25,249 nt of DNA from Fimbriimonadales bacterium (GTDB lineage: Bacteria; Armatimonadota; Fimbriimonadia; Fimbriimonadales; GBS-DC), in the NCBI GenBank assembly GCA_025060055.1, contig JANXCK010000239.1:1-25249 (forward strand). Reading direction: 5' to 3'. The stretch's first letter is position 1. Each line of letters begins with the position of its first letter. Below the pieces are notes generated by a model. That model was given only the letters and a program-made list of their open reading frames with translations, made no database searches and had not been told where the DNA came from. A program made the translations under genes and the position numbers. Below, in pieces: positions 974-24,429 of this stretch.

Positions 974-1096
974 TTATACTAATCGGGGTTTCAAGTAGCG
1001 CAGTCGTCGGCGAGGACGCCGACGCTACGGGGAGCGCGTGCGTAGCGTCCGCGTCTCGCTGACGAACTGGGTCGCTTGGGACGCCGATTGGTATTA
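974..1096. mobile_element. MITE-like shell D, copy 1 (117 bp, 977-1093), carrying two inverted GTAG REP hairpins
   Basis: Left TIR TACTAATCGGGGTTTCAAG (977-995); right TIR CTTGGGACGCCGATTGGTA (1075-1093); flanked by TTA (974-976) and TTA (1094-1096). REP units at 1005-1028 and 1042-1064. Confidence 0.75.
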
Positions 1097-1117
1097 AACG
1101 GAGCAACCCTGAGGGGG

Positions 1118-1123
1118 TATAAT
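1118..1123 (+). promoter_or_regulatory. -10 box (TATAAT), 8 nt before the folK ATG; probable leaderless or near-leaderless start
   Basis: GGGGTATAATCCCTGTGC-ATG, with no Shine-Dalgarno between the box and the start codon. Confidence 0.65.
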
Positions 1124-1131
1124 CCCTGTGC

Positions 1132-1647
1132 ATGGCGACGAAGGTTTACCTGAGCCTCGGCTCGAATTTGGGCGATCGGCTGGCAAACTTGCGGGAGGGT
1201 CTACGCCGCCTTTCCTTGCACGGAGTGGTTCCTCTGCAGATTTCACGAGTGTACGAGACCGCACCTGTGGGAGAAACTCCCGACCCGCGTCCGTATCTGA
1301 ATGTAGGCATATGGGCAGTGACCGAGCTGTCTCCCGATGCGCTGCTGAACACCGTGAAGACCGTCGAGGCGGAGCTGGGGCGCGTTCACAACGAAGGGCG
1401 CTGGATGCCTCGAACCCTCGACATCGATATCATCCTATATGACAACCTGACGATGGACACGCCGACACTGACGATTCCGCATCCGCGCATGCGCGAGCGC
1501 GCTTTTGTTCTCATCCCGTTGGCGGAGCTGACACCCCATCTCGTGTTGCCCGACGGAACGCCCGTGCAGGAACTTCTGCGCAACCCGCAAACCCAAGCAC
1601 AGGAGGTACGAATCTACCATGCCGACCTATCGGTACCAAGCGATTGA
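1132..1647 (+). CDS. folK: 2-amino-4-hydroxy-6-hydroxymethyldihydropteridine diphosphokinase (HPPK)
   Basis: YLSLGSNLGDR, YETAPVG, PRTLDIDIILY and LTIPHPRMRERAFVLIPL are HPPK signature motifs. Confidence 0.97.
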   Translation: MATKVYLSLGSNLGDRLANLREGLRRLSLHGVVPLQISRVYETAPVGETPDPRPYLNVGIWAVTELSPDALLNTVKTVEAELGRVHNEGRWMPRTLDIDIILYDNLTMDTPTLTIPHPRMRERAFVLIPLAELTPHLVLPDGTPVQELLRNPQTQAQEVRIYHADLSVPSD

Positions 1648-2935
1648 CTCGACAGGTCGGAGCGTTGCGGGTGAGATTACCGCATCCGATGTGCGGAATG
1701 CGCAGCAGCTGCTTCGTCAACGGGGCTTGATTGCCACGCACTTGAGCACGGTCAATCCTTCCACTTCTGGAACGCCTCGCCCACCCCTCGGACAAGATAT
1801 TCGAGCCACTGGAGGCGCGCGTCCTCAGCCCGCGCCGCGCTCACGCGCGTCTGCCCGAACAACAGGCACTTGGGAGCGCACGCGCGTCTCGCCCCATCAG
1901 ATGGTGGTATGGCTGATTCAGTTGCGCTCGATGCTCAAAGCGGGGATGACGCCTGCAAATGCATTCGAGAGCCTAAGCGGACGCATACCACATCGCGGGC
2001 TTCAGCACGCCAGTCGTGAAATCGCGCGTAGCGCCGCGCAGGGTATCCCGATTTCCGAGTCGATGCAACGATTTCCTGAGCTGTTTCCGAGTTTTGTTGT
2101 GGGCGCGTTTCGCGCGGCGGAGTACGGAGGTTACCTACCTGAGATGCTGGAACGCCTGATTGTCTACTTTGAGCAGTGGCGGATAGTGCGCCGCTGGTCG
2201 GTTCTAACGCAAGGCTGCTTGTGGCACGCAGTGCTGCTGCTACCGCTGATTGCGCCGTTCGGGGTTGGACTGTTGTGGGGGCTGCAGCGATTTGAAGGCG
2301 GTGGTACAGCGGACGCGCTGCGTGCGATTGCAGGTGGCGTGGGGCAGGCGTTCTTGCGCTACGGCTTACCGATGGCGTTGGCTTTCGTTGCGCTGCTGCT
2401 ACTGGGCTACTTGCTATTAGGCAACGAGCGCATTCGGGCACGCCTGCGCCTGAGCGGCTCAGGGTTTTTGTCATACGCGGACTGGATTCGCGCCCAGTCG
2501 CTGGAACAGTATCTGTTCCATCTGAGCCGCCTCACGCAGGCGGGCGTTGCACCTGCAACGGCACACGCACTTGCCGCAAGCGCAGTTCCCAACCGCGTGC
2601 TGGCGGAATCCTTGCTGGCAGTCGATCTGGGACGCGCGGAAGGCGCAAAACACCTCGACCTTGCGCTGGAGCGGTCAGGGCTGTTCCCGATAGAGGAGGT
2701 TATGTTGGCACGCACAGGCGTGCAGACAGGCGAGTTGCCTGCTACGCTCCAGACCCTCGCCGCGTGGTACAAAGAACGCGCCGATACCAACCTGCGGCAG
2801 CTCCCACGCGCGTTTGCACGACTGGTGTTTTTTATCAGCCTCGTCGCAGTGGGAATTGCCGCGATTAGTCTGGCTTGGGGCTATTACAGGAATGTCTTCC
2901 ACGCTGTGGAGCGATTTATGGGCGTTGGAGAGTGA
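1619..2935 (+). CDS. Type II secretion system F / PilC-family inner-membrane platform protein
   Basis: N-terminus MPTYRYQAIDSTGRSVAGEI; two GspF repeats (QLRSMLKAGM..GAFRAAEYGGYLPEML; GVQTGELPATLQTLAAWY) separated by hydrophobic helices. Overlaps folK by 29 nt. Confidence 0.88.
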   Translation: MPTYRYQAIDSTGRSVAGEITASDVRNAQQLLRQRGLIATHLSTVNPSTSGTPRPPLGQDIRATGGARPQPAPRSRASARTTGTWERTRVSPHQMVVWLIQLRSMLKAGMTPANAFESLSGRIPHRGLQHASREIARSAAQGIPISESMQRFPELFPSFVVGAFRAAEYGGYLPEMLERLIVYFEQWRIVRRWSVLTQGCLWHAVLLLPLIAPFGVGLLWGLQRFEGGGTADALRAIAGGVGQAFLRYGLPMALAFVALLLLGYLLLGNERIRARLRLSGSGFLSYADWIRAQSLEQYLFHLSRLTQAGVAPATAHALAASAVPNRVLAESLLAVDLGRAEGAKHLDLALERSGLFPIEEVMLARTGVQTGELPATLQTLAAWYKERADTNLRQLPRAFARLVFFISLVAVGIAAISLAWGYYRNVFHAVERFMGVGE

Positions 2936-3007
2936 TAAGCCCTTCGAATAGGTGCGACGGCATTCTTGCCATCGCACCTTACGGAGTCTGCGTGTTTGGA
3001 GATGATC

Positions 3008-3167
3008 TAATACCCATCGGGGGTTCAAGCGATACAGTGTTCTGAACGGCTGAAGCCGTTCCTGCGCAGGCCAAGCCGACCTCCGTCGGTTGTAACCCGC
3101 GTAGGCGGGCTTTGTTTGCACAGGAACGGCTTGAGCCGTGTTTTACCTGACACCCCAATCGGTATAA
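3008..3167. mobile_element. MITE-like shell D, copy 2 (154 bp, 3011-3164), carrying a family A palindrome (3045-3140)
   Basis: Left TIR TACCCATCGGGGGTTCAAG; right TIR CCTGACACCCCAATCGGTA; flanked by TAA (3008-3010) and TAA (3165-3167). Confidence 0.78.
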
Positions 3168-3201
3168 CAAGTGACTCACAGGTGAAATTATCTTTTTTTT
3201 C

Positions 3202-3264
3202 AGGGCGCGCACGGGGGCGCGCCCCTACTCAGACTCGGTAGGGGCAGCCCCCTGTGGCTGCCCT
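3202..3264. repeat. REPIN-like doublet of GTAGGGGC REP hairpins
   Basis: AGGGCGCGCACGGGGGCGCGCCCCTAC, 9-nt spacer, GTAGGGGCAGCCCCCTGTGGCTGCCCT: two inverted hairpins, each starting with GTAG on its own strand. Confidence 0.75.
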
Positions 3265-3329
3265 GTAAAAGGAGACGATTTTATATTGGAAGCACTCAAG
3301 TCCCTCAAAGGTCAAAGGCTCCCTTTTTG

Positions 3330-3415
3330 ACCCTCACCCCCAACCCCTCTCCCACGAGGAGAGGGGAGCCGAGTTCCCCCTCGCCCTCTGGGAGAGGGGG
3401 TCAGGGGGTGAGGGT
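3330..3415. repeat. Family C C-rich/G-rich palindrome (CCCTCACCCCC...GGGGGTGAGGG)
   Basis: Self-complementary ends and internal CCCTCTCC/GGAGAGGG stems. Its reverse complement aligns closely with 12069-12160. Confidence 0.8.
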
Positions 3416-3450
3416 GGGAGAACGAGACGATTTAATCGTTGAGGCACTTA

Positions 3451-4752
3451 TTACCCCGCCAGCGACGGCTCGCCCACCACCACGGTTGCGAACCGTTCTG
3501 GCTGCAAATAGCGCGCCGCTGCTTGTTGCACCGCATCCGCCGTTAGCGACTCCAGCATCTCAGGATACCGACGCCAGTAGTCCATCGGCAGCCCGTACAG
3601 CACCACCTGCTTATACAAATCCGCCAGCGAGCCGAGCGTGAGGCGACCAATCATATGGCGTCCGATGAGGTAGTTGCGTGTGGCGTCCAGCTCGTCGGCG
3701 GGGATTGGCTCGTGTATCAGGCGTTCCACCTCGGCGCAAATTTGGCGGACGGCGTCGTGCGTATTCTCGGTGGCGGTTTGCGCCTCGGCAGTAAACGCGC
3801 TGACGCGCAGATAGTAATCCAAGTGTGCGCCGACGCTGTAGGCGTAGCCGTACTGCTCGCGCACGGTCAGGAACAGGCGGGAACTCGCGCCTGCGCCCAA
3901 GATGCTCACTGCCATCTGCAGCGCGAGGCTGTCGGGCGCAGTGCGCGGCGGGCACAGTGCGCCCAGCATAATCTGGCTCTGCACCGAGTGCGGACGCTCC
4001 ACCAGTCGCCAGCCCGTCTCGGCGTTCTGCATCGGCGGCGCGGGAAGCGGCTCCTGCTCCGCCGTGCCGTGCCAGTCGCCCAGTGCGTCCTGCAGCAACT
4101 TGAGTGCAGCGTTCGGCTCGAAGTCGCCCACCAGCAGCAGCGTGGCGTCCTGCGGGCGATAGCGTTCGGCGTGGAACGCCTGCAGATGCTCTTGCTGCCA
4201 GCGTTGCAGGACGTCCTCGTCGGGCGCGAGCCGACGATACGGATGCTCGCCAAACAGCGCGATTCGGAACCGCTCCTCCGCCAGAAACGCGGGCTGCGAG
4301 CGTTGCAGGCGCAGTCGTTGCAAAGTGTTGGCGCGGTCAATCTCCAGCTCGTCGGGCGGGAAGGTGGGATTTAGCAGCACATCGGCAATCAGGCGCGTCA
4401 TCGGCTCCAGATAGGGCGCGAGGCAGCGTGCGCTCAGGGTTGCCGTCTCGGTGTTCGCGCTGACGCTGATGTAGCCCCCGCAGCGGTCGGCTTCATCGGC
4501 GATTTCGAAGCTGCTGCGCGTGGGCGTGCCGCCGATTAGCAGTCGCGCCGTCGCGCCCGACAGCCCTATCCACTCAGGGGCGTCGTACGCGCGCCCTGCG
4601 TAGGGCAGAACCAGCCGAAACTCCACCACAGGCGCGCGGGTGTCGGGCAGCATCAGCAGGCGCAAGCCGTTGGGCAACAGCGTCGCGTCGGGCAGGGGCA
4701 ACTCCGACGGGCGCATCGGCACATCGGGCGGCGGCACAGAGCGCGTTATCAT
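3451..4752 (-). CDS. M16 (insulinase/pitrilysin-like) peptidase, non-catalytic subunit lacking HXXEH
   Basis: LPNGLRLLM, GLSGATARLL in place of HXXEH, LGAGASSRLFLTVREQYGYAYSVGA. Lies next to an HXXEH-containing M16 gene. Confidence 0.88.
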   Translation of the reverse strand: MITRSVPPPDVPMRPSELPLPDATLLPNGLRLLMLPDTRAPVVEFRLVLPYAGRAYDAPEWIGLSGATARLLIGGTPTRSSFEIADEADRCGGYISVSANTETATLSARCLAPYLEPMTRLIADVLLNPTFPPDELEIDRANTLQRLRLQRSQPAFLAEERFRIALFGEHPYRRLAPDEDVLQRWQQEHLQAFHAERYRPQDATLLLVGDFEPNAALKLLQDALGDWHGTAEQEPLPAPPMQNAETGWRLVERPHSVQSQIMLGALCPPRTAPDSLALQMAVSILGAGASSRLFLTVREQYGYAYSVGAHLDYYLRVSAFTAEAQTATENTHDAVRQICAEVERLIHEPIPADELDATRNYLIGRHMIGRLTLGSLADLYKQVVLYGLPMDYWRRYPEMLESLTADAVQQAAARYLQPERFATVVVGEPSLAG

Positions 4753-4759
4753 AGGCGAG

Positions 4760-4765
4760 AGTATA
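4760..4765 (-). promoter_or_regulatory. -10 box (TATACT), 7 nt before the M16 non-catalytic subunit ATG
   Basis: Minus strand reads GTAGGTATACTCTCGCCT-ATG, with no SD. Confidence 0.6.
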
Positions 4766-4766
4766 C

Positions 4767-5321
4767 CTACTCAAACAGTTCGCCCACGCGCACTTCGAAG
4801 TTGGGCAGCAGCTCGCCCCCCGTCAGCACATCGTTTTCGTGCAGCACCTCCACCTCCAGCGGCGCAGTGTAGCGATACGCCTGCTTGCGCTCTGGAAACA
4901 GCAACCACACCTGCTGCGCCCCCGACTCAAAGTACTCCAACACCTTCTGATACAGGTCGTTCAGGTTCTCTGAGGGGGAAACAATCTCCACTGCCAGGTC
5001 TGGTGCGCCGTCGATAAGATCCACAGGTGGCTCGCCCTGTGGCAGGCGAGTTTTTTGCATCAGCGCGAAGTCGGGGCTGCGAATGTTGCCCCCCGCTATC
5101 CGAAACCCCGTGCTGGAGTCGAAGCCCTCAAGAGATTCGGGCGCACTGTTGCCGATTCTACGCGCCAATCTATAGCCGATTCTGCCGTGTCTTCCACCTG
5201 TGGGCACGGTTTGTAGCCTCCCGTTGACCAGTTCATACTTGCGCCCGTCATCAGGCAGCTGCAGCAGGTCGTGTTCGGTGTAGCGGCGTTTGCGTTTGGG
5301 CTGCTCGCGTACCGTCGCCAT
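4767..5321 (-). CDS. Uma2/DUF820-family putative PD-(D/E)XK endonuclease
   Basis: YELVNG, GGRHGRI, IRSPDFAL, APDLAVEIVSPSE and KVLEYFESGAQQVWLL are typical Uma2 motifs. Start MATVREQ has AGGTGA upstream; the ORF-track extension to 5408 is repeat-derived. Confidence 0.9.
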   Translation of the reverse strand: MATVREQPKRKRRYTEHDLLQLPDDGRKYELVNGRLQTVPTGGRHGRIGYRLARRIGNSAPESLEGFDSSTGFRIAGGNIRSPDFALMQKTRLPQGEPPVDLIDGAPDLAVEIVSPSENLNDLYQKVLEYFESGAQQVWLLFPERKQAYRYTAPLEVEVLHENDVLTGGELLPNFEVRVGELFE

Positions 5322-5339
5322 CAGTCTCACCTGTGGGGA

Positions 5340-5348
5340 AGTGTACCA
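5340..5348 (-). promoter_or_regulatory. Possible extended -10 (TG-G-TACACT) for the Uma2 gene
   Basis: Minus strand reads CATGGTACACT about 20 nt upstream of the ATG at 5321. Confidence 0.4.
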
Positions 5349-5365
5349 TGCATGCTTCAAGCGTT

Positions 5366-5523
5366 GCACGGGCGAGACGCCCGTGCCACAAAGGGGGGGC
5401 ACGGACAAGACTGTCCGTGCTACCTTGACACGGGCGGGACGCCCGTGCTACGCGCATAGGTGGCACGGACAAGACTGTCCGTGCTACGCGCATAGGGGGC
5501 ACGGACAAGACTGTCCGTGCTAT
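5366..5523. repeat. Family B REP cluster, five hairpins, including a 36-bp tandem duplication
   Basis: GCACGGGCGAGACGCCCGTGCCAC, three copies of GGCACGGACAAGACTGTCCGTGCTA and ACACGGGCGGGACGCCCGTGCTAC. Period 36 between 5445, 5481 and 5517. Confidence 0.88.
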
Positions 5524-6800
5524 GATGTGCCTGCGTGAATGTGCATCACGGTTCGGTTGCGCGGGGTGTACAGATACTGCTGCACAGCGCGTTGCACATC
5601 AGCGGGGGTGATGGCGAGCAGGCGTTCCAGCGCGCGGTTTAGCCCGTCGGGGTCGCCCTCAAAAGCGGCGAAGTACGCCAGCCCCAACGCGCGCCCCAGC
5701 GGGCTTTGCATGCCGTAGTACAAGTTGTCGCTCCAGCGTTGCGCCAGCAGCATTGTGCGCACGCGCTCCAGCTCGCGCTCCGAGACGCCCGCGTCGGCAA
5801 GTTTCTGGATCTCCTCGTACAGCACGGCTTCCACTTGCGCGGGTTCCACATGCGGATGGTGCAAGATGAACAGTCGGAACAGGCTGGGCGCGGGACGCGC
5901 CTCCACCCCACCCGATACGCTGACCGCGATTTGCTCCTGTTTCACCAGTCGCTGGTAGAGTCGCGAGGCGCGCCCGTCCACCAGCAGGTCGCCCGCGATT
6001 TGCAGCGCATCGTTTTCCAGCGTACCGCGTGGGGGGATTTTCCAGCATACGGCGACGGCGGGCACTTGCGCCAGCGGGTCATGAAATACCTCGCGCCGCT
6101 CGTCGCGGTCAGGCTCCGACACATCCACTGCGGGCGGGGCGGGCTGCGACGGGATGTCAGCGAAATACTGCTCGATCCAATCGCGTGCTGTCGCCGCGTC
6201 GTAGTCGCCTGTCACCACCAAAATCGCGTTGTTGGGCGCGTAGTAGGTGCGGAAGAACGCCTGCACATCCGCCAGCGTCGCGTTGTCCAGATCCTCCATC
6301 GAGCCGATAACCGAGTGCTGATTGGCGAAGTTGTCGTAGGCGATTTCGCGCAGGCGTTCCATCGCGCGGGCGTAGGGCTGATTGTCCACGCTGAGCCGTC
6401 GCTCCTCTTTCACGACGGCGCGCTGGTTGTCTAAGTTTTCCTGCGACACCTGCAGCGAGCGCATCCGATCCGATTCGAGCCACAAGCCCAGTGGCAGCTT
6501 GGATGCGGGCAGCAGCTCAAAGTAAACCGTCATGTCGTACGAGGTGAAACCGTTCAGCACGCCCCCGTTCGATTCCACATACTTGAAGTGCATTTCGCGT
6601 GGCACATTTTCGGAGCCTTGAAACATCATATGCTCGAACAGATGGGCGAAGCCTGTTTTGCCGCGCGGCTCGTTGACTGAGCCGACCTTGTACAGCACCA
6701 GCACTGCCACCGTGGGCGCGACTGTGTGGGACGACAAGATGACTTGCAAGCCGTTCGGCAGGGTGTAGGTTTCGTACTCGATGCGCGTGGGCGTATGCAT
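5520..6800 (-). CDS. M16 peptidase, catalytic zinc-binding subunit
   Basis: YTLPNGLQVIL, YKVGSVNEPRGKTGFAHLFEHMMFQGS (HXXEH), AVVKEERR and FFRTYYAPNNAILVVTGD. Confidence 0.95.
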   Translation of the reverse strand: MHTPTRIEYETYTLPNGLQVILSSHTVAPTVAVLVLYKVGSVNEPRGKTGFAHLFEHMMFQGSENVPREMHFKYVESNGGVLNGFTSYDMTVYFELLPASKLPLGLWLESDRMRSLQVSQENLDNQRAVVKEERRLSVDNQPYARAMERLREIAYDNFANQHSVIGSMEDLDNATLADVQAFFRTYYAPNNAILVVTGDYDAATARDWIEQYFADIPSQPAPPAVDVSEPDRDERREVFHDPLAQVPAVAVCWKIPPRGTLENDALQIAGDLLVDGRASRLYQRLVKQEQIAVSVSGGVEARPAPSLFRLFILHHPHVEPAQVEAVLYEEIQKLADAGVSERELERVRTMLLAQRWSDNLYYGMQSPLGRALGLAYFAAFEGDPDGLNRALERLLAITPADVQRAVQQYLYTPRNRTVMHIHAGTS

Positions 6801-6806
6801 AATGAA

Positions 6807-6812
6807 AGTATA
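6807..6812 (-). promoter_or_regulatory. -10 box (TATACT), 6 nt before the M16 catalytic subunit ATG
   Basis: Minus strand reads AAGGTATACTTTCATT-ATG, with no SD. Confidence 0.65.
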
Positions 6813-6861
6813 CCTTGTGGGAGAGGGGCTTGGTTTCTCTCAGGGAATGTTCGCGTTGTCG

Positions 6862-6885: not shown

Positions 6886-6894
6886 ACGAGTTGA

Positions 6895-7707: not shown

Positions 7708-7779
7708 AGTGATTCGAACGATTCTAAGCGTGCGCCGCGATTCCTGCTGTAAATTCTGCAAGGAAATGAGGATATTTCG

Positions 7780-9757: not shown

Positions 9758-9941
9758 GTGGCTTGGACAGTCTTGTCCAAGCATACAACAGCGCGTAGCG
9801 TCGGCGTCTTGCCGACGATTGCACGGACGCGACTGTCCGTGCTACGGATGCACGGGCTGGAAGCCCGTGCCACGCGTAGCCCGCACGGACAAGACTGTCC
9901 GTGCCACGCGCAGTTCGCACGGACAAGACTGTCCGTGCTAC
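9758..9941. repeat. Family B REP cluster, six hairpins, between dnaK and dnaJ
   Basis: GTGGCTTGGACAGTCTTGTCCAAGC, GTAGCGTCGGCGTCTTGCCGACG, GCACGGACGCGACTGTCCGTGCTAC, GCACGGGCTGGAAGCCCGTGCCAC and two GCACGGACAAGACTGTCCGTGC(C/T)AC. Confidence 0.88.
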
Positions 9942-11988: not shown

Positions 11989-12037
11989 GTGGGTGTTCGA
12001 AAAATGCCTGTAGACAGGGCGGCTCAAGCCGTTCCTG
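11989..12037. repeat. Truncated shell-E/family A element ending at the shell D insertion
   Basis: GTGGGTGTTCGAAAAATGCCTGTAGACAGGGCGGCTCAAGCCGTTCCTG aligns with the start of the 823 and 19421 copies. Confidence 0.55.
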
Positions 12038-12194
12038 TTATACCAATTAGGATTTCAAGCGTCGTTATACCCTCACCCCCTTGTCCCCCTCTCCCACCGC
12101 GTGGGCGAGGGGGAATTCGGCTCCCCTCTCCCGCAACGCGGGAGAGGGGCTGGGGGTGAGAGAACAACGGCATTTGAAACCCCGCTTGGTATTA
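12038..12194. mobile_element. MITE-like shell D, copy 3 (151 bp, 12041-12191), carrying a family C palindrome (12069-12160)
   Basis: Left TIR TACCAATTAGGATTTCAAG; right TIR TTTGAAACCCCGCTTGGTA; flanked by TTA (12038-12040) and TTA (12192-12194). The second TTA is the stop codon of the TPR gene. Confidence 0.78.
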
Positions 12195-14333
12195 CTTGCG
12201 AGTGCTCCCTGCGCCGTTGCGTAGCCTCGATCGCGCCTCTTGGAGCAGAGCCGTGACTGTGCGGTCGTTGTAGCCGCTGCGCTGGAGCTCCAAAAGCACC
12301 TGCTCAGCCTCTGCGGGGCGTCCCTGCAAGAGGCGTAATCGTGCCAGCGCAATCCCATAAGCGATTCGATCGGGGTCGCGTTGGGCAGCGGCACGCAGGT
12401 GTGCCTCGGCTAATGCCAGGTTGCGCTCGTTCATCCAGTGGTGCGCGGCAGCAACCCATTTGCTGGCGCTTCGCAGTTGCTGCAGTCCCTCCGCAGCGAC
12501 GGAGCCACTCGGATTGGGCAACAGCGCGTAGGCTTTGCGGAACTCGGCTTCCGCAAGGTCGAGCCGTGCGCGACGCGCGTAAATCAATCCCAGCGCCTGA
12601 TGCCCCATAAACTGGGGTGGCTTACCCAGCACGCGCTGTTTGATGATTCGTTCCGCTGCCTCGTGCTCGCCGCGCTCGGAAAGCATCGCAGCAAAGTTGT
12701 TCCATGCCGTGACATTCTCAGGTTCTACCTCAGTCGCCTGCCGAAATGCGACGATAGCAGCATCTGGGTCGCCTAAACGCAGCAGTGCAACGCCTTTGTT
12801 CACATAGCCCATCCCGCTGCGCGGCGCAACCCGAATTGCCCGCTCAGCGTATTCCAACGCCTCAGTGTACCTGCCCATCTTCGCGTACAAGTCCGACAAG
12901 TTGCTGAACCCGACGGGCGAGCTGGGCGAAGCGACCGTGAGCCACTTCCAAAGCGTCTCTGCGTCGCGCCAGTTCGGTAAGTTATACGCGCTCGTGATAA
13001 TAAGCCCAACGCCCCACACCGCGATAAGCGTCCGCAACGCCCACGAAGTGCTGACGCGCCACATCGACAGCCGCGCAGACCAAAAATCCGTGCCACTTGG
13101 CGGCTTGGGCGACCTCGCCCAAGCAGGTGTGGCGTCAGCGTCTTGCCGACGACGATGCACGGACTTCCAGTCCGTGCCAGTTGGGGGCTGAGCGGTCTTG
13201 CCCAAGCGCGGCACAAGCGGAGGCTCAACACCGTGCACAAGCCCCAGCAGAAACAGCGCGAGTGGGAACGTCAGAAACCGCTCTGCCGTGAAGATGCCAT
13301 ATGCGAACTCCAGCGGGCGCAGGTTCAGCACGGGCAGCAGCGCAACCAGCCCCGCCGCCACAAGCCAGCCGACCTGAGGACGACGCCGAATCAGATACCC
13401 GACCCCCAACAGGGTCAGACCCGCCAACCCCAGTTGCGCCCACGCCCAGCCCTCATTCAGCGGTATAGGCAGCTCAGAATGGTGTGCAGCGGTGATACTC
13501 GGAAATGGGAACAGCACCAGTCCTGTCAAGGTGGTTAGTGTGCGTCCAATCAGCAGAAGATGCTGTAGGGGCGTGCCCGCCTCAATCTGGGCGTCGCCTA
13601 TCGGTGCGGTGAGCCAGTATCCTAATGCGGCATAGCGCACGACAAGATACACCATCAGCGCGCCGCCCAGCGCGCCGTACAACGCCCGATCCTGACGCCA
13701 GAGCCGAACTACCTTTTCTCTCAACCCGCTGCCCTCTTGCTGCGCCAGCTGCCACAGCACCAGCACAAGCGGGAACACCAGCGCCATCTCCTTACAAAAC
13801 AGCGCCAAGAGGAACGCGCCCGACACGCCCCAAAGGCGTGCAACACCCCGCAGACACCCCTCCAGCCACAGCGCCAGCAGCAGGAAGAGCGTCACGGTCA
13901 GGTCATACCGCGACGAGACGAACGCCACACTCTCCACTAAGGCGGGATGCACACCGTACAGGGCGCCTGCCAGCAGCCCCATCCAGTGCCCGCGCAGCAG
14001 GCGCAGCCCCAACGCCATCACGAGCGCGGTGTTCAGCAGGTGGATTTGCAGATTCGCTGCATGGAACGGCGCGGGATTATCTTTCCACAGCCAAATCTGC
14101 ACGAGCAAACTGCTCAGTGCCAGCGGGCGGAAGTAGTTCGGCGAGAAGTCCAGCGGTTGACTCACTGCCTCCAGCCAACGCGCGGGTGAGCGGTAGTCGG
14201 CACGCCCGTAAATCAGCTGGTCGTCGTCCCACACGAACTTGAAGCGCACTGTCGGCGCGTAAAGCGCACCCACCATTACCAAAATCGCCAGTGCGCCGCC
14301 CCACTGCAGCGCTTGCAAGCCGTTGCGAAACAC
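12192..14333 (-). CDS. Multi-pass membrane protein with C-terminal TPRs, TMTC-like/GT-C glycosyltransferase family
   Basis: FVWDDDQLI and NYFRPL first-loop motifs, HPALVESVAFVSSRYDL, many hydrophobic helices, AERFLTFP, NWRDAETLW, then about five TPR units. GTG start at 14333 inferred from the -10 box and first TM helix; the ORF track starts at 14414. Confidence 0.8.
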   Translation of the reverse strand: MFRNGLQALQWGGALAILVMVGALYAPTVRFKFVWDDDQLIYGRADYRSPARWLEAVSQPLDFSPNYFRPLALSSLLVQIWLWKDNPAPFHAANLQIHLLNTALVMALGLRLLRGHWMGLLAGALYGVHPALVESVAFVSSRYDLTVTLFLLLALWLEGCLRGVARLWGVSGAFLLALFCKEMALVFPLVLVLWQLAQQEGSGLREKVVRLWRQDRALYGALGGALMVYLVVRYAALGYWLTAPIGDAQIEAGTPLQHLLLIGRTLTTLTGLVLFPFPSITAAHHSELPIPLNEGWAWAQLGLAGLTLLGVGYLIRRRPQVGWLVAAGLVALLPVLNLRPLEFAYGIFTAERFLTFPLALFLLGLVHGVEPPLVPRLGKTAQPPTGTDWKSVHRRRQDADATPAWARSPKPPSGTDFWSARLSMWRVSTSWALRTLIAVWGVGLIITSAYNLPNWRDAETLWKWLTVASPSSPVGFSNLSDLYAKMGRYTEALEYAERAIRVAPRSGMGYVNKGVALLRLGDPDAAIVAFRQATEVEPENVTAWNNFAAMLSERGEHEAAERIIKQRVLGKPPQFMGHQALGLIYARRARLDLAEAEFRKAYALLPNPSGSVAAEGLQQLRSASKWVAAAHHWMNERNLALAEAHLRAAAQRDPDRIAYGIALARLRLLQGRPAEAEQVLLELQRSGYNDRTVTALLQEARSRLRNGAGSTRK
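13074..13207. repeat. Family B REP cluster (five degenerate hairpins) inserted in frame inside the TPR membrane-protein gene
   Basis: Coding strand carries GCTTGGGCAAGACCGCTCAGC, GGCACGGACTGGAAGTCCGTGC, CGTCGGCAAGACGCTGACGCCAC, GCTTGGGCGAGGTCGCCCAAGCC and GTGGCACGGATTTTTGGTCTGCG, all variants of the intergenic units. Confidence 0.85.
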
Positions 14334-14338
14334 GCAGT

Positions 14339-14344
14339 AGTATA
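14339..14344 (-). promoter_or_regulatory. -10 box (TATACT), 5 nt before an in-frame GTG of the TPR gene
   Basis: Minus strand reads CGTGTATACTACTGC-GTG, with no SD. Confidence 0.55.
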
Positions 14345-14364
14345 CACGAGAGCCTTTTACTCGC

Positions 14365-15621
14365 CTATTTCCCGCACGGCGCGTTCGGGGGCAGTCCGCA
14401 GAACAGGCGGTCATACGCTGTGAGCAGTACTTGCTCGCTGCGCTCCCAGCTCAGACAGTCTAAGAACCGCTGCCGTCCGTATTGGCTCATGAAGCGCCGA
14501 CGCTCCTCGTCGTGCAGCAGTTCCAAAATCGTGTCGCCGAACGATTCGGGGCGATCGTCAGGCGGGGAAATCAGCGACTCCTGCGCCGACCATTTGTTCT
14601 CGATGCTTTGGGTAGCGACAATCGGCAGCCCAACCGCCATAAACTCGATAATTTTGTTCATGGTGGAGCGCGCAGTATAGGTGTTGTCGGGGTCGCTGGC
14701 GACGCCCACATCCGCCGTGCTGAGGTAGCGCAGGAGCAGCTCGCGTTCGCGCACAAAGCCCGTGAAGGTAATGTAGTCTTGCAGGTTCAGCTGTTGCGCG
14801 AGCCGCTTGACTTCCTCAAGGCAGTCGCCCGAGCCAACCGCGATGAAATGCACATCGGTATACCCGCGTGTATACACAATATGGTGCGCTGCCTTGACGA
14901 AGATATCCGTCCCGTCCTGAGGTCCCATAATCCCCAGATAGCACACGAGGTACTTCTTGCCCTTTTTGATGCTGGGGTCAGGCTCGACGGGACAGAACTC
15001 GGAGGCGCGTGGCCCGCTGCGCACAATCACAATCTTTTCGGGGTCTGCCTTGCCCCGCTCGATCGCGTTTTGGCGGTACGACTCGTTCATTTCGATAATC
15101 ATATCCGCCAGTTGGTACGACCAGCGTTCGAACAGCACCTGCAGGTGGTAAAACAGTCCGCGTTTTTTGAAGCGCACTTCGTACAGCTCGGGACACAGGT
15201 CACGATGCTCATACACGAACTTCTTACCGCGCGCCTTGTAGTACAGCCCGATAGACCAGAAGATGTCCAACGGGTTGCCCACATGGAACACATCGAAGCC
15301 TTGTTCGCGTTCCACGCGCTTGCTCAGGCGGAAAGTGTGCCAGAGGCAGTAGAGTGCTTCTTTGATGAAGTTGCCGACGCTGTGGGTAGGTGGTGGCATC
15401 GGGTAGCGGTACAGGTGGATGCCTTCCATCTGGCAGTATTCGGGGTCTTCGGGCGGGCGCGGCGAGATGACCGAGACGTGGTAGCCCGCGCGGCGCAGAG
15501 AGGTCGCCACCTGCCACATGCGGCGATCATGCGGCACTGGCAGGTTCTCCAGCACCAGCAGTATCTTCCTCGGTTGTGCCTCGAGCGTCTGGGTACGCTC
15601 TACTTCCGACTCTTTCAACAT
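14365..15621 (-). CDS. Glycosyltransferase family 4
   Basis: LVLENLPVPHDRRMWQ, YEHRDLCPELY, YLGIMGPQDG and STMNKIIEFMAVGLPIV. AGGAG SD before MLKESE at 15621. Confidence 0.92.
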   Translation of the reverse strand: MLKESEVERTQTLEAQPRKILLVLENLPVPHDRRMWQVATSLRRAGYHVSVISPRPPEDPEYCQMEGIHLYRYPMPPPTHSVGNFIKEALYCLWHTFRLSKRVEREQGFDVFHVGNPLDIFWSIGLYYKARGKKFVYEHRDLCPELYEVRFKKRGLFYHLQVLFERWSYQLADMIIEMNESYRQNAIERGKADPEKIVIVRSGPRASEFCPVEPDPSIKKGKKYLVCYLGIMGPQDGTDIFVKAAHHIVYTRGYTDVHFIAVGSGDCLEEVKRLAQQLNLQDYITFTGFVRERELLLRYLSTADVGVASDPDNTYTARSTMNKIIEFMAVGLPIVATQSIENKWSAQESLISPPDDRPESFGDTILELLHDEERRRFMSQYGRQRFLDCLSWERSEQVLLTAYDRLFCGLPPNAPCGK

Positions 15622-19343: not shown

Positions 19344-19375
19344 CGCCGTAGGCGTTATTCCATATCGCCCGGTAT

Positions 19376-19381
19376 ATTATA
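19376..19381 (-). promoter_or_regulatory. -10 box (TATAAT) upstream of the dehydrogenase/GT operon
   Basis: Minus strand reads GGGCTATAAT about 33 nt upstream of the start. No good -35 seen. Confidence 0.5.
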
Positions 19382-19420
19382 GCCCAAATTGCCACCTATT
19401 TTTCAGGTTGACCGACCTTA

Positions 19421-19560
19421 GAGACTGCTTAAGAAATGGCGCATGCCCCCAACGGCTAAAGCCGTTGCCGTGCAAACCAAGCCGACCTGCGTCGGCTTTT
19501 AGCCCGCGCAGGCGGGCTTCGTCTGCATAGGAACGGCTTCAGCCGTCTATTTCTTAGACA
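19421..19560. repeat. Shell-E element carrying a full family A palindrome (19451-19546)
   Basis: Left end GAGACTGCTTAAGAAATG preceded by TTA; partial inverted right end ATTTCTTAGACA. Confidence 0.7.
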
Positions 19561-19561
19561 A

Positions 19562-19848
19562 GAGACTGTTCAAGAATGCGAGCGGGCTTTCGTAGCGTCG
19601 GCGTCTCGCCGACGCCCCTGCGTGGCACGGGCTTCCAGCCCGTGCAGCCGTAGCACGGACAGTCGTGTCCGTGTCTCGTCGGCGCGGACGCCGACGCCAC
19701 GGCTTGGACACGACTGTCCAAGCCACGCTCGGCTTGGGCGAGACGCCCAAGCCGCGAGTCGCTTGCGTCGGCAGGATGCCGTCGTACCCACAGCGACGGC
19801 AACGCGTCGGCACTACGAAAACTTGCCTGTATCCTTTCAAACGGTCTC
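19562..19848. repeat. Shell-E-like element carrying seven family B REP hairpins (19592-19787)
   Basis: Left end GAGACTGTTCAAGAATG; right end CCTTTCAAACGGTCTC (reverse complement GAGACCGTTTGAAAGG). Internal GTAG/GTGG hairpins. Confidence 0.68.
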
Positions 19849-19900
19849 CGTGCCTTTCACTGCAGGAAACTCGCCCACAGTGCCGAAACCTGAAGGCGCG

Positions 19901-21232
19901 ATGCAGTTTCCGAAGGACTTTCTCTGGGGCGCAGCGACGGCAGCGTATCAGATCGAAGGCTCGCCGCTGGCAGATGGCGCAGGTGCGTCCATCTGGCATC
20001 GGTTCAGCCACACGCCCGGCACAATCCTCAACGGCGACAACGGCGATATCGCATGCGACCACTACCGCCGCTGGCAAGAAGATATCGAGTGGATGAAGCG
20101 GTTAGGGCTGAACGCCTATCGTTTCTCAGTGGCGTGGGGACGCGTGCTGCCCACCGGGCGCGGCACGGTGAATTCGAAAGGGCTGGACTTCTACAAACGG
20201 CTCGTGGACGGCTTGCTCCACGCGGGAATTACCCCGATGATTACGCTCTACCACTGGGACTTGCCTGCCGAGCTGCAGGATTGCGGCGGCTGGGCGAACC
20301 GCGACTGCGCCAAGTGGTTTGCCGACTACGCCTGCCTGATGTTCCGCGAACTGGGCGACCGTGTGCCCCTTTGGGCAACGCTCAATGAGCCGTGGGTCGT
20401 GATGGCGCTGGGCTACATTTGGGGTCAGCATGCGCCTGGCATGCGCGACATCGGCGCTGCTGCAAAAGCGGGACACCACATGCTGCTCGGACACGGTAAA
20501 GCGGTGCAGGCATTCCGCGCCCAGAGCCTGCCCGATGCGCAAATCGGCATCGTGACCAATCTCGGACCGCAACAGCCTGCCAGCGACAGCCCGCAAGACC
20601 AGATGGTCGCTGCCCTGTGGCATAACTTCATCAACCGCTATTTCTTAGACCCCATCTTTCGCGGGGAGTACCCCGATACAGTGATGAACTTTATCGGCGA
20701 GTTCGCGCCCAAAGCCGCACCCGATGACATGCAAGTCATCCAGAGTCGTATCGACTTTTTGGGCGTGAACTACTACACGCGCAACGTGGTTGCCTACGAT
20801 GCTAGCGACCCAATCGGCTCGCGCACTGTGTATCAGGAGGGCAAACTCCACACCGAGATGGGCTGGGAAGTGTATCCTGAAGGCTTGTATGAAATCCTGA
20901 GGTGGGTTCACGACGATTACGGCAACATCCCGCTGTACATCACCGAGAACGGCGCAGCGTTCGCCGATGCGCCCAACCCGCAAGGCGAGGTAGACGACCC
21001 CCTGCGCGTGGAGTACCTCAAGGCGCATCTGGAGCAGGCGTATCGCGCGATTCAGGACGGCATACCGCTCAAAGGCTACTTCTATTGGTCATTGATGGAC
21101 AACTTCGAGTGGGCGTTCGGCTTCAGCAAGCGATTCGGACTGCTGTATGTCGATTATGAGACGCAGCGACGCCTGATGAAGTCCAGTGGACGCTGGTATG
21201 CGGAGTTCATCGCTGCGCAACGACAAGCGTAG
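19901..21232 (+). CDS. Glycoside hydrolase family 1 beta-glucosidase
   Basis: FPKDFLWGAATAAYQIEG, ACDHYRRW, YRFSVAWGR, TLNEP (acid/base), ITENG (nucleophile) and WSLMDNFEW. The ORF-track extension from 19622 is repeat-derived. Confidence 0.96.
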   Translation: MQFPKDFLWGAATAAYQIEGSPLADGAGASIWHRFSHTPGTILNGDNGDIACDHYRRWQEDIEWMKRLGLNAYRFSVAWGRVLPTGRGTVNSKGLDFYKRLVDGLLHAGITPMITLYHWDLPAELQDCGGWANRDCAKWFADYACLMFRELGDRVPLWATLNEPWVVMALGYIWGQHAPGMRDIGAAAKAGHHMLLGHGKAVQAFRAQSLPDAQIGIVTNLGPQQPASDSPQDQMVAALWHNFINRYFLDPIFRGEYPDTVMNFIGEFAPKAAPDDMQVIQSRIDFLGVNYYTRNVVAYDASDPIGSRTVYQEGKLHTEMGWEVYPEGLYEILRWVHDDYGNIPLYITENGAAFADAPNPQGEVDDPLRVEYLKAHLEQAYRAIQDGIPLKGYFYWSLMDNFEWAFGFSKRFGLLYVDYETQRRLMKSSGRWYAEFIAAQRQA

Positions 21233-21258
21233 GTTCGCCAATTTTGAGGCAATCGAGT

Positions 21259-21264
21259 TATAAT
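21259..21264 (+). promoter_or_regulatory. -10 box (TATAAT) and GAGGAGG SD upstream of the second prepilin-like gene
   Basis: GAGTTATAATTGCACAAGAGGAGGTCTCCG-ATG. Confidence 0.6.
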
Positions 21265-21284
21265 TGCACAAGAGGAGGTCTCCG

Positions 21285-22088
21285 ATGAATCGACGAGGCT
21301 TCACGCTGATAGAACTGCTCGTGGTGATTGCGATCATCGCGATTTTGGCGGCGATTCTGTTCCCTGTGTTTGCGCAAGCGCGTGAAAAGGCGCGTCAGAC
21401 GACCTGCCTTTCGAACCTACGCCAGCTGGGTACTGCCTTCGAAATGTACCGCACGGATTGGGAAGGGCGCAACCCTGGACCTGCCGACGGCGGACGCTGC
21501 CCTGGCTCGTGGAATCCCCCCGATTGGCCCAGTTGGATGACAGGGTTCCGAGCCTACTTGGAGGGGCAGTGGGTACCATGTTTTCCGATACTTACTCGAG
21601 TTAGCGATCCCGACTCACCGGTCAGCTCCTTCTGGCTGCTGTACGGGCATGTGACTCGCGGCGCAATTTACCTGTATGTGAAAAATCCCGATGTGTACAT
21701 CTGCCCCTCCGATCGACGCGGACGCGAGAAGCGCCTCAGCTACTCGATGAATGCAGTGGCGGGGTTCATCCCGGAGCAGGTAGTGGAGCGTCCTGCTGAG
21801 TTCGTGTACCTGATTGATGAGGGCGAAACCCTCAACGACGGCTACTTCTGGGCAATTGCAGCGGGATCCGCTGGTCCTCGGATGGTCGACTGCCCCTCGA
21901 TTATGCATGCGAACGGCGCGAACTTTCTATTTTTTGATGGGCATTCGAAGTGGGTGCGGGCGACCCATCCGCGCGAGCGGGCACGCATAGACCAGTGCCT
22001 CGATACAGTGCCCAAACATTACTTCTGCCCCAAGATACCTTTCCCTGAGTCGGCGCAGTATCGGGGCGGGTGCGAGCGCGCTCCGTAG
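21285..22088 (+). CDS. Prepilin-type N-terminal cleavage/methylation protein with DUF1559-like region and H-X9-DG motif
   Basis: [58 protein letters not shown] and [13 protein letters not shown]. Confidence 0.92.
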
Positions 22089-22091
22089 GGG

Positions 22092-22097
22092 TATACT
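22092..22097 (+). promoter_or_regulatory. -10 box (TATACT), 7 nt before the biotin carboxylase ATG
   Basis: GGGGTATACTCGCCCCG-ATG, with no SD. Confidence 0.65.
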
Positions 22098-22104
22098 CGC
22101 CCCG

Positions 22105-23613
22105 ATGTTCCGCACAGTGTTGGTCGCGAATCGGGGCGAGATTGCGCGGCGCGTAATTCAGGCGTGCCGCGAGCTGGGCATCCGCGCGATTGCGGTCTAT
22201 TCAGAAGCGGACGCTGACGCGCCGTTCGTGCAGGAGGCGGACGAGGCGTACCTGCTGGGCGGTGCGCCCGCCGTTGAGAGTTACCTCAACATCCCGCGCA
22301 TCTTGGAAGTGGCGCGTCAATCGGGCGCGGAGGCAATTCATCCAGGCTACGGGTTCCTGTCCGAGAATGCCGACTTCGCTGAGGCGTGTGCCCAGGCGGG
22401 CGTGGTGTTCATCGGGCCGCGCCCTGAGGTGATTCGGTTGCTCGGTGATAAGGGCGCCGCGAAGCGGGCGGCTCTGCGTGCGGGCGTTCCAATTGCCCCT
22501 GGCTACAACCCTGAACACGCCGCCACGCCCGAAGAGCTGCTGAACGCCGCGCACCAGATAGGCTTCCCCGTGTTGCTCAAAGCGGTGGCAGGGGGCGGTG
22601 GGAAGGGCATGCGTGTCGTGGAGACGCCTGATACCTTCTTGGAACTGGTGGAGAGCGCTGCGCGCGAGGCTCAGAACGCCTTCGGCGACCCCCGCTTGAT
22701 GCTGGAACGCTACCTCCGCCGCCCGCGCCACATCGAAGTGCAAATCCTCGCAGACCAGCACGGCAGAGTAATGCACCTGTACGAGCGCGAATGCTCCATC
22801 CAGCGCCGCTACCAGAAAATCGTCGAAGAAAGCCCTTCGCCCGCTTTAGACGCGCCCACGCGCACTGCCCTTTGCGACGCCGCCATCCGCCTTGCCGAGA
22901 CCGTCGGCTACACCAACGCAGGCACAGTAGAGTTCCTCTACGAGGAGACGCCCGAAGGCTGCCAGTTTTACTTTATGGAAGTCAACACGCGCCTGCAAGT
23001 GGAACACCCCGTAACGGAGATGGTCACAGGCGTCGATTTGGTGCAGTGGCAGATTCGAATCGCGGCGGGCGAGCGATTGGAGTTGGCGACACCTGTGCAG
23101 CGCGGGCACGCGATTGAGGCGCGCCTATATGCGGAGGACCCTGAAAACGACTTCGCGCCGTCGCTGGGCACGCTCGTGGCATACCAGCTGCCCCATCTGC
23201 CCGGCGTGCGCTTCGATTCGGGCGTGGAAGCAGGTTCGGTCATCACCCATCACTACGATCCAATGATAGCGAAGGTCATCGCGCACGCGCATGACCGCGC
23301 CAGCGCCATCCGCCGACTTATAAATGCTCTGGAGCAGACCGTCGCTCTCGGCGTGCGCACGAATCAGGCATTTCTGATCGAGCTGCTGCGCCATCCCGCT
23401 TTTCTGGCGGGTGCGCTGCACACGGGCTTTCTTCAAGAACACCGCGTCGCCGCCGAGCCGAGCCAGCCGCCAGAGGGCGTGCTGCTCGCATTAGCACTGC
23501 TGGAACCGCTTACGCGCTCTCAGACGCGCCCTGCTGCTGCGGGCGGCGCGCCAGACGCCGTTCTGTGGTCGCCGTGGGAGCGCTTCGGCAGGTGGCGAGT
23601 GGGCAGCGGATAA
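22105..23613 (+). CDS. Biotin carboxylase subunit of an acyl-CoA carboxylase; no biotinyl domain
   Basis: VLVANRGEIARR, IHPGYGFLSENA, KAVAGGGGKGMR, ERECSIQRRYQK, FMEVNTRLQVEHPVTE and YDPMIAK. No EAMKM motif. Confidence 0.94.
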   Translation: MFRTVLVANRGEIARRVIQACRELGIRAIAVYSEADADAPFVQEADEAYLLGGAPAVESYLNIPRILEVARQSGAEAIHPGYGFLSENADFAEACAQAGVVFIGPRPEVIRLLGDKGAAKRAALRAGVPIAPGYNPEHAATPEELLNAAHQIGFPVLLKAVAGGGGKGMRVVETPDTFLELVESAAREAQNAFGDPRLMLERYLRRPRHIEVQILADQHGRVMHLYERECSIQRRYQKIVEESPSPALDAPTRTALCDAAIRLAETVGYTNAGTVEFLYEETPEGCQFYFMEVNTRLQVEHPVTEMVTGVDLVQWQIRIAAGERLELATPVQRGHAIEARLYAEDPENDFAPSLGTLVAYQLPHLPGVRFDSGVEAGSVITHHYDPMIAKVIAHAHDRASAIRRLINALEQTVALGVRTNQAFLIELLRHPAFLAGALHTGFLQEHRVAAEPSQPPEGVLLALALLEPLTRSQTRPAAAGGAPDAVLWSPWERFGRWRVGSG

Positions 23614-23635
23614 GTGCCTCTGATGCGAACTCGCC

Positions 23636-24082
23636 TCAATCGGGCAGGTTCGTTTCCAAAATCGCTTGACAGCAGTCAATCAGGCGTATTGTACCGATGA
23701 ACTTGCCCTCGCCCTGCACAGGGAGCGTGTCCAACTCGTGTTGCAGCATAGTTACAACAGCTTCCTCAACGGGCGCCTGCTCACTCAGTACAGGTGGGTC
23801 GTGCATCATCCATTCGGTGATAAGGCTGTCTTTGCGGGCATGGGCATACGAGCGAAACGGGGCAAGATGTGGGATTGGCACTTGACGCGCCGCGACCTGC
23901 CACTCGGCAAACAGCGCGTTGAACACCTGCCGTTCCGTAACCAGCCCGATGACGACACCATCCTCATTCAGCACGGGCAGCGCGGTGGCTTTATACAAGT
24001 CCAACTTGTCCACGGCGTCCTGCAAGGTGGCGGTTTCGCTCAGGTACGGCGCGTGGGTGTCTACGAACTCTAAGACGCGCAT
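23636..24082 (-). CDS. CBS-domain pair protein
   Basis: ATLQDAVDKL..LPVLNEDGVVIGLVTERQV and EAVVTMLQHELDTLPV..GKFIGTI. GGAG SD before MRVLEF; the ORF-track extension to 24271 is repeat-derived. Confidence 0.85.
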   Translation of the reverse strand: MRVLEFVDTHAPYLSETATLQDAVDKLDLYKATALPVLNEDGVVIGLVTERQVFNALFAEWQVAARQVPIPHLAPFRSYAHARKDSLITEWMMHDPPVLSEQAPVEEAVVTMLQHELDTLPVQGEGKFIGTIRLIDCCQAILETNLPD

Positions 24083-24130
24083 AGGTTTACTCCTGCACAA
24101 GTTTAGCGAATACTTGAGAATTCCTACTGC

Positions 24131-24261
24131 ATAGCGTCGGCGTCTCGCCGACGAGCGTGGCTTGGGCGTCTCGCGCATGCAGTTGCACGGGCGGGATTGC
24201 CCGTGCCACGAGCGTGGCTTGGACAGTGCTGCCCAAGCACGGCACGGACAAGACTGTCCGT
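24131..24261. repeat. Family B REP cluster, five hairpins
   Basis: ATAGCGTCGGCGTCTCGCCGACG, GTGGCTTGGGCGTCTCGCGCATGC (degenerate), GCACGGGCGGGATTGCCCGTGCCAC, GTGGCTTGGACAGTGCTGCCCAAGC and GGCACGGACAAGACTGTCCGT (truncated). Confidence 0.85.
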
Positions 24262-24272
24262 TTGGAAGCACT

Positions 24273-24429
24273 TACCAATCGGGGTTTCAAACGGCACAGT
24301 ATTCTGAACGGCTGAAGCCGTTCCTGTGTAGACCAAGCCGACCTGCGTCGGCTGTAGCCCGCGTAGGCGGGCTTGGTTTGCACAGCAACGGCTTTAGCCG
24401 TGTTTCACTTGACACCCTAATCGGTATAA
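24273..24429. mobile_element. MITE-like shell D, copy 4 (154 bp, 24273-24426), carrying a family A palindrome (24307-24402)
   Basis: Left TIR TACCAATCGGGGTTTCAAA; right TIR CTTGACACCCTAATCGGTA; right flank TAA, left flank ACT (duplication not intact). Same length and cargo as copy 2. Confidence 0.75.

Follow-up and report, generated by a model that had tools for sequence, protein, structure and literature searches.

Four short non-coding elements in a 25,249-nt contig of a Fimbriimonadales bacterium (phylum Armatimonadota; NCBI GenBank assembly GCA_025060055.1, JANXCK010000239.1; the whole contig is called the window here) share one kind of end, which we name shell D, and enclose three unrelated palindromic cores. 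We consider it probable that shell D belongs to the miniature transposable elements with inverted repeats (MITEs), is moved in trans and duplicates TWA (W, A or T) at its target, and that its three subfamilies differ in a resident palindromic core which also exists outside the shell. The genome is a hot-spring metagenome-assembled genome (MAG) that is 81% complete, with 2.08 Mb in 281 contigs and 61% G+C, and the window is its contig C75. Comparison at genus level covered this genome (G000) and 16 congeners, and the wider sets comprised 401 genomes of the phylum and 16 metagenome contigs.

The four copies in the window

A sequence-only reading of the window had described four elements, three of them with exact 3-bp direct flanks, and their coordinates, ends and flanks are all as it described:

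977-1093: copy 1, shell D MITE of subfamily F0, 117 bp; TTA duplication at 974-976 and 1094-1096
3011-3164: copy 2, shell D MITE of subfamily F2, 154-bp class; TAA duplication at 3008-3010 and 3165-3167
12041-12191: copy 3, shell D MITE of subfamily F1, 151 bp; TTA duplication at 12038-12040 and 12192-12194
24273-24426: copy 4, shell D MITE of subfamily F2, 154-bp class; flanks ACT and TAA, without duplication

Copy 1 consists of inverted ends of about 28 nt around an inverted doublet of repetitive extragenic palindromic (REP) hairpins of the GTAG type. The cargo of copy 2 is a branched palindrome, ACGGCT...AGCCGT (3046-3139), and this copy and copy 4 are 88% identical, while copy 3 carries the nested palindrome CCCTCACCCCC...GGGGGTGAGGG. 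The 19-nt end TACCAATCGGGGTTTCAAG is matched at no more than 3 mismatches by six of the eight window ends and by none in 100 shuffles, and copies 2 and 4 have a recurrent variant resembling TACCGATTGGGGTGTCAAG at their right end. Each of the four copies folds end to end as a single strand (z -5.3 to -6.8), copy 1 as a single long hairpin (z -6.2).

Ends, target duplication and insertion sites

The end TACCAATCGGGGTTTCAAG occurs 349 times at no more than 4 mismatches in 2.08 Mb and 207 times at no more than 2, versus 0 times for the pattern read backwards. With indels permitted in the partner end, about 176 paired shell D elements were counted, and 76 ends had no partner within 420 bp. Beyond the 19-mer, a loose YGRCRCANT-like stretch is common to all arms, so that the shell measures about 28 nt per side. 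Among 140 elements of 100-260 bp, 57 are bordered by identical 3-mers, nearly all TAA or TTA, versus only 1-5 of 140 when the compared 3-mers were moved outward by 3-12 bp. TAA/TAA was tallied 27 times, TTA/TTA 18 times and the mixed combination 10 times; TAA or TTA flanks 64% of 279 shell D ends, with TCA, TGA, CTA and TAG as minor flanks.

The flanks of each element were also joined and searched against the genome as candidate empty sites, which yielded four nested insertions whose host repeat also exists as an uninterrupted paralogue (paralogous empty sites). A 150-bp D element of subfamily F1 has a 117-bp element (C253:6272-6388) at a TAA in its centre, an F2 palindrome borne by a different end type, shell F, has another (C198:6451-6565) at a central TTA, and two lie at TAA close to the ends of elements of a third type, shell G (C266:5217-5382 and C201:3151-3317). 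The alignments close without a gap around one copy of the 3-mer, which defines the element as running from TACC to GGTA with a 3-bp duplication and excludes a TA duplication. Thus, both the 3-mer counts and the empty sites with a single 3-mer agree with the TWA duplication that the sequence-only reading had proposed for non-autonomous elements.

Insertion often falls in the AT-rich apex of another palindrome or at a TAA stop. In 14 of the 140 elements the duplication falls on the stop codon of an open reading frame (ORF) that is 120 aa or longer, versus a sum of 4 for six control offsets, and insertion into a TAA stop regenerates the stop. Copy 3 is an example, as its right TTA serves as the TAA stop of the TPR gene at 12192-14414 (minus strand), and this right junction was found in two hot-spring metagenomes as well. 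Shell D elements are therefore characterized by imperfect inverted ends of about 28 nt, insertion at TWA with a 3-bp duplication, and the lack of coding content.

Two associations of D ends with other mobile elements were observed in addition. There are 43 D ends (15%) that adjoin GAGGCACT or GAAGCACT, a G-type terminus, with a TA common to both (GAGGCACT-TA-CCAATCGG); the window example is at 24262-24275, where the left end of copy 4 adjoins the GGAAGCACT terminus of a G-type element. This abutment is likely the result of G-type insertion into the terminal TA of the D element, or of a pair that spreads as a unit. The genome also holds a complete 919-bp insertion sequence (IS) of the IS982 family (G000:C231:1-919, L015; NF033520, E 3e-54) with ends TAACCCAACTTGC, and the D element at C87:4091-4166 directly adjoins an IS982-type end like TAACCCAACTTGC.

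Subfamilies, lengths and age

The interiors had been called non-homologous, which the genome as a whole corroborates: they form three large, separate clusters (F0, n=50; F1, n=36; F2, n=36), with only about 9 subterminal bases in common beyond the 19-mer. The 50 copies of F0 measure 114-119 bp, and their core is the inverted doublet of GTAG REP hairpins. The 36 copies of F1 have a mode of 150 bp and the core CCCTCACCCCC...GGGGGTGAGGG with two inner hairpins, and a 183-bp class (n=7) has an additional GTAG REP at the centre. The core ACGGCT...AGCCGT of the 36 F2 copies likewise contains two inner hairpins, and these copies fall into two classes whose linkers differ, one of 154 bp (n=16, copies 2 and 4 of the window among them) and one of 166 bp (n=20). 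Each subfamily has a conserved consensus that includes the end-to-core linkers, with T(T/A)A on either side; each composite of shell and cargo has thus been amplified as a unit, to 36-50 full copies. Within subfamilies the median pairwise identity is 0.81-0.83 and the maximum 0.96-0.99, indicating that the families are old and that some copies are recent.

A possible length constraint had been suggested by the near-equal size of three window copies. It is rejected, because the genome-wide modes are 117, about 150 (plus 183), 154 and 166 bp, with full elements of 114-168 bp, and the coincidence at 151-154 bp is only local. A seeming 54-bp class of elements was an artefact arising from a pseudo-end within F2.

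Cargo outside shell D

The consensus of each core was searched by BLAST against the genome, and the flanks of the matches were sorted by end type:

F2 core, 126 copies: D/D 34; F/F 18, E/E 9; single D end 16; no known end 17
F1 core, 95 copies: D/D 29; G/G 11, D/G 9; single D end 19; no known end 19
REP doublet, 96 copies: D/D 44; D/E 2, D/G 2; single D end 28; no known end 20

The single REP occurs 166 times, in 113 cases without a nearby D end. Core boundaries do not vary with context, and those of the F2 core (ACGGCT...AGCCGT) are constant in bare copies and in five shells. In congener G011, which is without shell D, at least seven identical elements of about 250 bp (L075-L081) with the ends GGGTAGGTTTTTTT...AAAAAAACCTACCC carry the F2 palindrome; in G006, F2 lies bare among REPs; and F2 is abundant in congeners without any D end. 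The cargos are therefore independent resident repeat families of the genus that also occur outside shell D.

The other shells differ from shell D in their ends and duplications. Shell F ends (GAGACTGTTTAAGAA) bound an 860-bp IS in G008 and G005, two ORFs of which match the IS5-family model NF033580, and shell F MITEs show TAA, TGA or TCA duplications (TNA) in 13 of 20 cases. Shell E ends enclose IS copies roughly 1 kb long that match DDE_Tnp_1. Shell G forms a MITE family of its own (ends AGTGCCTCAA), in which many members carry the F1 palindrome, and TA/TA flanks were found in 35 of 49 pairs. TA/TA flanks are the signature of the IS630 type; an IS630-type gene with shell G ends was not found in the genus. 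The signatures TWA (D), TNA (F) and TA (G) indicate that the same cores lie inside elements with three different duplication types. Thus, shell D is indeed cargo-bearing as the sequence-only reading held, but that reading was too narrow: neither shell D nor the GTAG REP is a special case, since the same cargos lie in four or more other shells that differ in their duplication signatures.

Many copies are one-ended or have mixed shells. Mixed D/F, D/G and E/F flanks occur, and a second D arm is untraceable in most one-ended D copies, which often have an F or G arm in its place. REPs have been added inside existing cores, as in the 183-bp class of F1, at the F1 centre in and outside D shells, and in C240. 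Several F1 cores (G000 C148, C239, C61, C159 and C78; L123:3850-4060) are interrupted by a repeat whose end resembles TAAGGGTACATC/TAAGGGTACAAC, probably a further family of IS or MITE type with the core centre as its target.

Neighbouring repeats and genes in the window

The window itself contains examples of each cargo outside shell D, as had been reported from the sequence:

822-935: shell E left end GAGGGTGTTTGAGAAAT, then a shortened F2-type palindrome; other end degenerate or missing
3297-3450: shell G element with the F1 palindrome of the copy 3 type; ends AGTCCCTCAA / TTGAGGCACT, TA-type flanks
11989-12037: shell E end GGGTGTTCGAAAAAT and the first hairpin of an F2-type palindrome, truncated precisely at the TTA of copy 3
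19421-19561: shell F element (IS5-family type, GAGACTGCTTAAGAA) with a complete F2 palindrome at 19451-19546
24129-24154: bare GTAG REP of the same type as both REPs within copy 1
9793-9818, 13127-13152 and 19590-19615: further bare GTAG REPs of the copy 1 type

The shell F element is preceded by TTA and followed by a second F-type end at 19563. [quoted passage not shown] The genes beside the four copies are all of housekeeping type: TetR and HPPK genes at copy 1, a T2SS-F-like gene and an M16 peptidase gene at copy 2, DnaK and TPR protein genes at copy 3, and CBS protein and M20 peptidase genes at copy 4.

Congeners, other taxa and metagenomes

Shell D is patchy in the genus, its end being present at high copy number in only 6 of the 16 congeners (89 ends in G015), and the same composites of shell and cargo recur in congeners and in metagenome contigs. 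DNA nearly identical to the window is present in hot-spring metagenomes. Orthologous sites, at which the sequence-only reading had suggested looking for empty sites, were obtained for copy 4 but not for copies 1-3, whose flanking genes are not neighbours in any of the 16 congeners. At the copy 4 site, the CBS-domain and M20 peptidase genes overlap (ATGA) without a spacer in G015, G004 and G008, so that these three congeners lack the whole 388-bp spacer of REPs and MITE that occupies the junction in the window (24083-24470; compared with L104, L105, L101 and L106). In G012 the junction holds an unrelated 264-bp tandem repeat of five units of about 42 bp.

A few MITE-like pairs of D ends with different interiors occur in other families of Armatimonadota. 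A 149-bp element in a genome of another Armatimonadota family with 49% GC (L094:319-467, G223) has D-like ends TACCAATCGGGTTTTCAAA and the flanks TAA and TGA; its interior is unrelated and less palindromic. Exact 19-mers in low-GC Gastranaerophilales-like contigs (L060, L063, L072, L110, L115) were rejected as relatives, as they are not a MITE in the two contigs checked: in L063 and L072 the 19-mer is part of a conserved ORF, about 365 aa long, that is unrelated to the MITE.

Search for a cognate transposase

Loci matching the transposase families DDE_Tnp_1, DUF4096, DDE_Tnp_4, DDE_Tnp_1_2, DUF772 and DDE_3 were retrieved from the genus or from five carriers of shell D and checked for D ends. 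No D-bounded gene was found by Pfam scans of the analysed genome (PF01609, PF13359, PF01797), of all 17 genus genomes (PF01609, PF13586, PF05598, PF13358) or of the five genomes carrying shell D (PF13340, PF13359), and the PIF/Harbinger-type DDE_Tnp_4 (PF13359) had no match in the analysed genome or in the four other carriers. The IS5-type genes of the genus are bounded by shell E or F ends or by GAGGCTATCTAGGAAA, never by D ends. Inward of the unpaired and contig-end D copies, the DNA contains only known cargos or ordinary genes. Outlying end matches in other Armatimonadota were discarded, since they lie beside LacI, pilin-like, nuclease or FadB genes or form small MITE-like pairs, and metagenome end pairs 0.9-1.9 kb apart, considered as an autonomous element, are actually nested MITEs. 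The Y1 transposase gene of the genome (G000:C100:2958-3628, L107) reaches 39 bits on the model for REP-associated tyrosine transposases (RAYTs), the cut-off of which is 80, and has no adjoining REPs or D ends. Its protein has a C-terminal stretch resembling sigma-70 region 4, and the gene runs past the contig end.

The mover of shell D would most likely be a transposase that acts in trans and makes 3-bp staggered cuts, a DDE enzyme of IS5-like kind, where the DDE or IS5-like origin is deduced solely from the 3-bp TWA duplication. The "DDE-type vehicle" of the sequence-only reading is thus retained as a non-autonomous, TWA-duplicating element, but its DDE type depends on the duplication, as no D-bounded transposase was found.

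How the cores came between the ends

We lean slightly towards the addition of a module at the centre of a hairpin: a palindrome would have been added in the middle of an element shaped like a hairpin, through its insertion at the apex or through fold-back copying, in which one end is copied together with an adjacent palindrome. This is favoured because the arms on either side of the core are nearly always of equal length (19/19, 28/29, 29/29, 36/36 and 31/30, with 36/25 in the 154-bp F2 class as the exception); the arms are also imperfect inverted repeats right up to the core. The shared cargo would then provide portable homology, and recombination through the core could yield one-ended and mixed-shell copies. 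Such recombination is the simplest explanation of the one-ended D copies with an F or G arm, and the lost gene order at copies 1-3 may be due to it in part. A broader view, which we offer as a tentative speculation, is that the palindromic cores form a second, independent selfish layer riding in MITEs, which would enter any MITE at its apex or create new ones by fold-back, be spread by the transposase of the host element, and through their homology shuffle ends and break gene order. The capture and spread of REP-type repeats postulated from the window alone holds for the spread as a unit, and capture becomes one of several possible routes, as REP insertion and recombination through the cargo were also seen.

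Several observations weigh against our interpretation of shell D as a trans-moved MITE with a core added at its centre. A transposase bounded by the same inverted ends, which the sequence-only reading had suggested looking for, was found in none of the analysed genome, its 16 congeners, the 401 phylum genomes and the 16 metagenome contigs, although this failure is weak evidence because insertion sequences assemble poorly in fragmented MAGs such as those searched. The D end starts with TACC, whereas IS5-family ends here start with GAG or GG, and no protein passes the RAYT cut-off, the sole Y1 transposase scoring as IS200-like. Two hot-spring metagenomes showed no presence/absence polymorphism, but their contigs break at the repeats. 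The F2 cargo tree, which has few columns, is unresolved and does not place the D-borne cargos in one clade; shell labels change 27 times on it versus 38 times after shuffling, that is, they are more clustered than by chance. Empty shells were not found for F and E, and for D there are only two deletion-like short elements, which fits poorly with cargo entering pre-existing shells. The lack of empty shells would instead suit a possible though less favoured history in which the ends were recruited around the cargo: insertion sequences of several families would have landed beside resident palindromes, known as hot spots of IS insertion, and the transposase would have used two nearby ends that face the palindrome as a new mini-element (inside-out or composite-type), or the interior of an IS would have been lost by deletion or abortive repair, so that its ends and the palindrome stayed behind. 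Two loci favour such recruitment and likewise count against central addition, namely an F-type end pair around six different REP hairpins directly adjoining an IS5-family IS that is full-length and has these same ends (G008, L012:1224-1457), and, in contig C168 of the analysed genome, an E-shell F2 element that directly adjoins a full-length IS-E. REPs are moreover documented as IS targets in work cited in PMC3733652 and PMC3184786. However, two independent insertions would not be expected to produce symmetric arms that remain imperfect inverted repeats up to the cargo, the cargo boundary is identical in five shells, and F2 is absent from the full-length IS-E and IS-F copies.

Two further explanations have much smaller probabilities. 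It is very unlikely that shell D is a composite of REP-type repeats, comparable to bacterial interspersed mosaic elements (BIMEs), hairpin-forming REP doublets (REPINs) or terminal inverted repeat (TIR) sequences, that is spread by a tyrosine HUH transposase (RAYT, or TIRYT, the tyrosine transposase of TIR repeats), with TWA as a mere target preference. HUH enzymes make no target duplication, whereas the flanks of shell D are direct repeats (the 27 TAA/TAA and 18 TTA/TTA pairs versus 10 mixed) that are lost at shifted offsets, and the empty sites show a single 3-mer without gaps. The cargo of F0 is a REPIN-like inverted doublet of GTAG REPs and the genome does contain a Y1 transposase gene, but its protein is under the RAYT cut-off and the gene is not flanked by D ends or REPs; TIR repeats linked to tyrosine transposases and REP units adjoining unrelated stem-loops have been described (PMC3733652). 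Hardly any weight is due to the idea that cargo sharing is mostly an artefact of the nesting or adjacency of separate elements. Nested and tandem arrangements are common, 43 D ends stand beside a G-type terminus, and there are mixed D/F, D/G and E/F flanks, but chance adjacency does not account for fixed linkers, lengths and consensus in 36-50 copies with their own TWA duplication outside the ends, or for the same composites in other species. Nesting accounts for singletons, not for families.

Significance

To our knowledge, the origin of MITE cores that do not derive from an IS is poorly understood. In this one small genome, at least four end types that differ in duplication signature are combined, as in a natural table, with three palindromic cores. 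The amplified combinations, together with a parent IS for at least one shell, make it possible to test both how MITE cores arise and how REPs and DDE elements exchange material. The elements also affect their host: a gene stays intact when an insertion falls on its TAA stop, repeat-filled spacers separate genes that ancestrally overlapped, and shared cores may drive rearrangement. In practical terms, such repeats break up MAG assemblies and can yield false CRISPR-repeat matches.

Comparison with known systems

MITE families with common ends but different interiors are familiar, especially in eukaryotes. Our literature search found no paper on the same palindromic cores amplified within MITEs that belong to several transposon families. 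Bacterial MITEs that descend from DDE insertion sequences have been reviewed (PMC3184786, PMC6382973), and those known as Correia/NEMIS, RUP, Nezha and MITEAba12 resemble shell D in their size of 115-170 bp, lack of coding content, TIRs and short target-site duplication, as well as in their tens to hundreds of copies, intergenic position near gene ends, strong hairpins and one-genus range. They differ in that no parent IS was found for shell D and that its core is a complete resident palindrome, not derived from an IS, which recurs in other MITE families. Apart from a known parent IS, shell D thus shows all the structural features of bacterial MITEs.

The 3-bp TWA duplication is shared with the IS5 family (TNA) and with eukaryotic PIF/Harbinger elements (TWA), and a true IS5-family IS coexists in the genus with its shell F MITEs, which bear the same cargo as shell D. 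Unlike these elements, D ends start with TACC and not with GAG or GG, and they bound no DDE_Tnp_1 or DDE_Tnp_4 gene in the genomes searched. The cargo of F0 has the inverted doublet of GTAG hairpins that is also seen in the REPs, REPINs and BIMEs associated with RAYTs and the TIR repeats associated with TIRYTs (PMC3116915, PMC3733652), and the REP type of copy 1 is abundant both singly and in clusters, as in REP systems. REPINs, however, have neither outer inverted ends nor a duplication, whereas here the doublet lies within a 3-bp-duplicating shell in a genome with no RAYT over the cut-off. Partial precedents in bacteria include Pseudomonas REP units that adjoin unrelated stem-loops, TIR repeat families in the vicinity of tyrosine transposases (both PMC3733652) and a Porphyromonas gingivalis MITE that carries a minisatellite (PMC4596501). 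The latter, BOX of Streptococcus pneumoniae and the enterococcal EFAR are modular mosaics which, like shell D, combine conserved end modules with exchangeable inner modules. Unlike in those mosaics, the inner modules described here are common to shells with TWA, TNA and TA duplications, and each combination has been amplified separately. Shell D, with hairpin cores that also exist bare and in other MITE families, is therefore an unusual modular variant of known selfish DNA.

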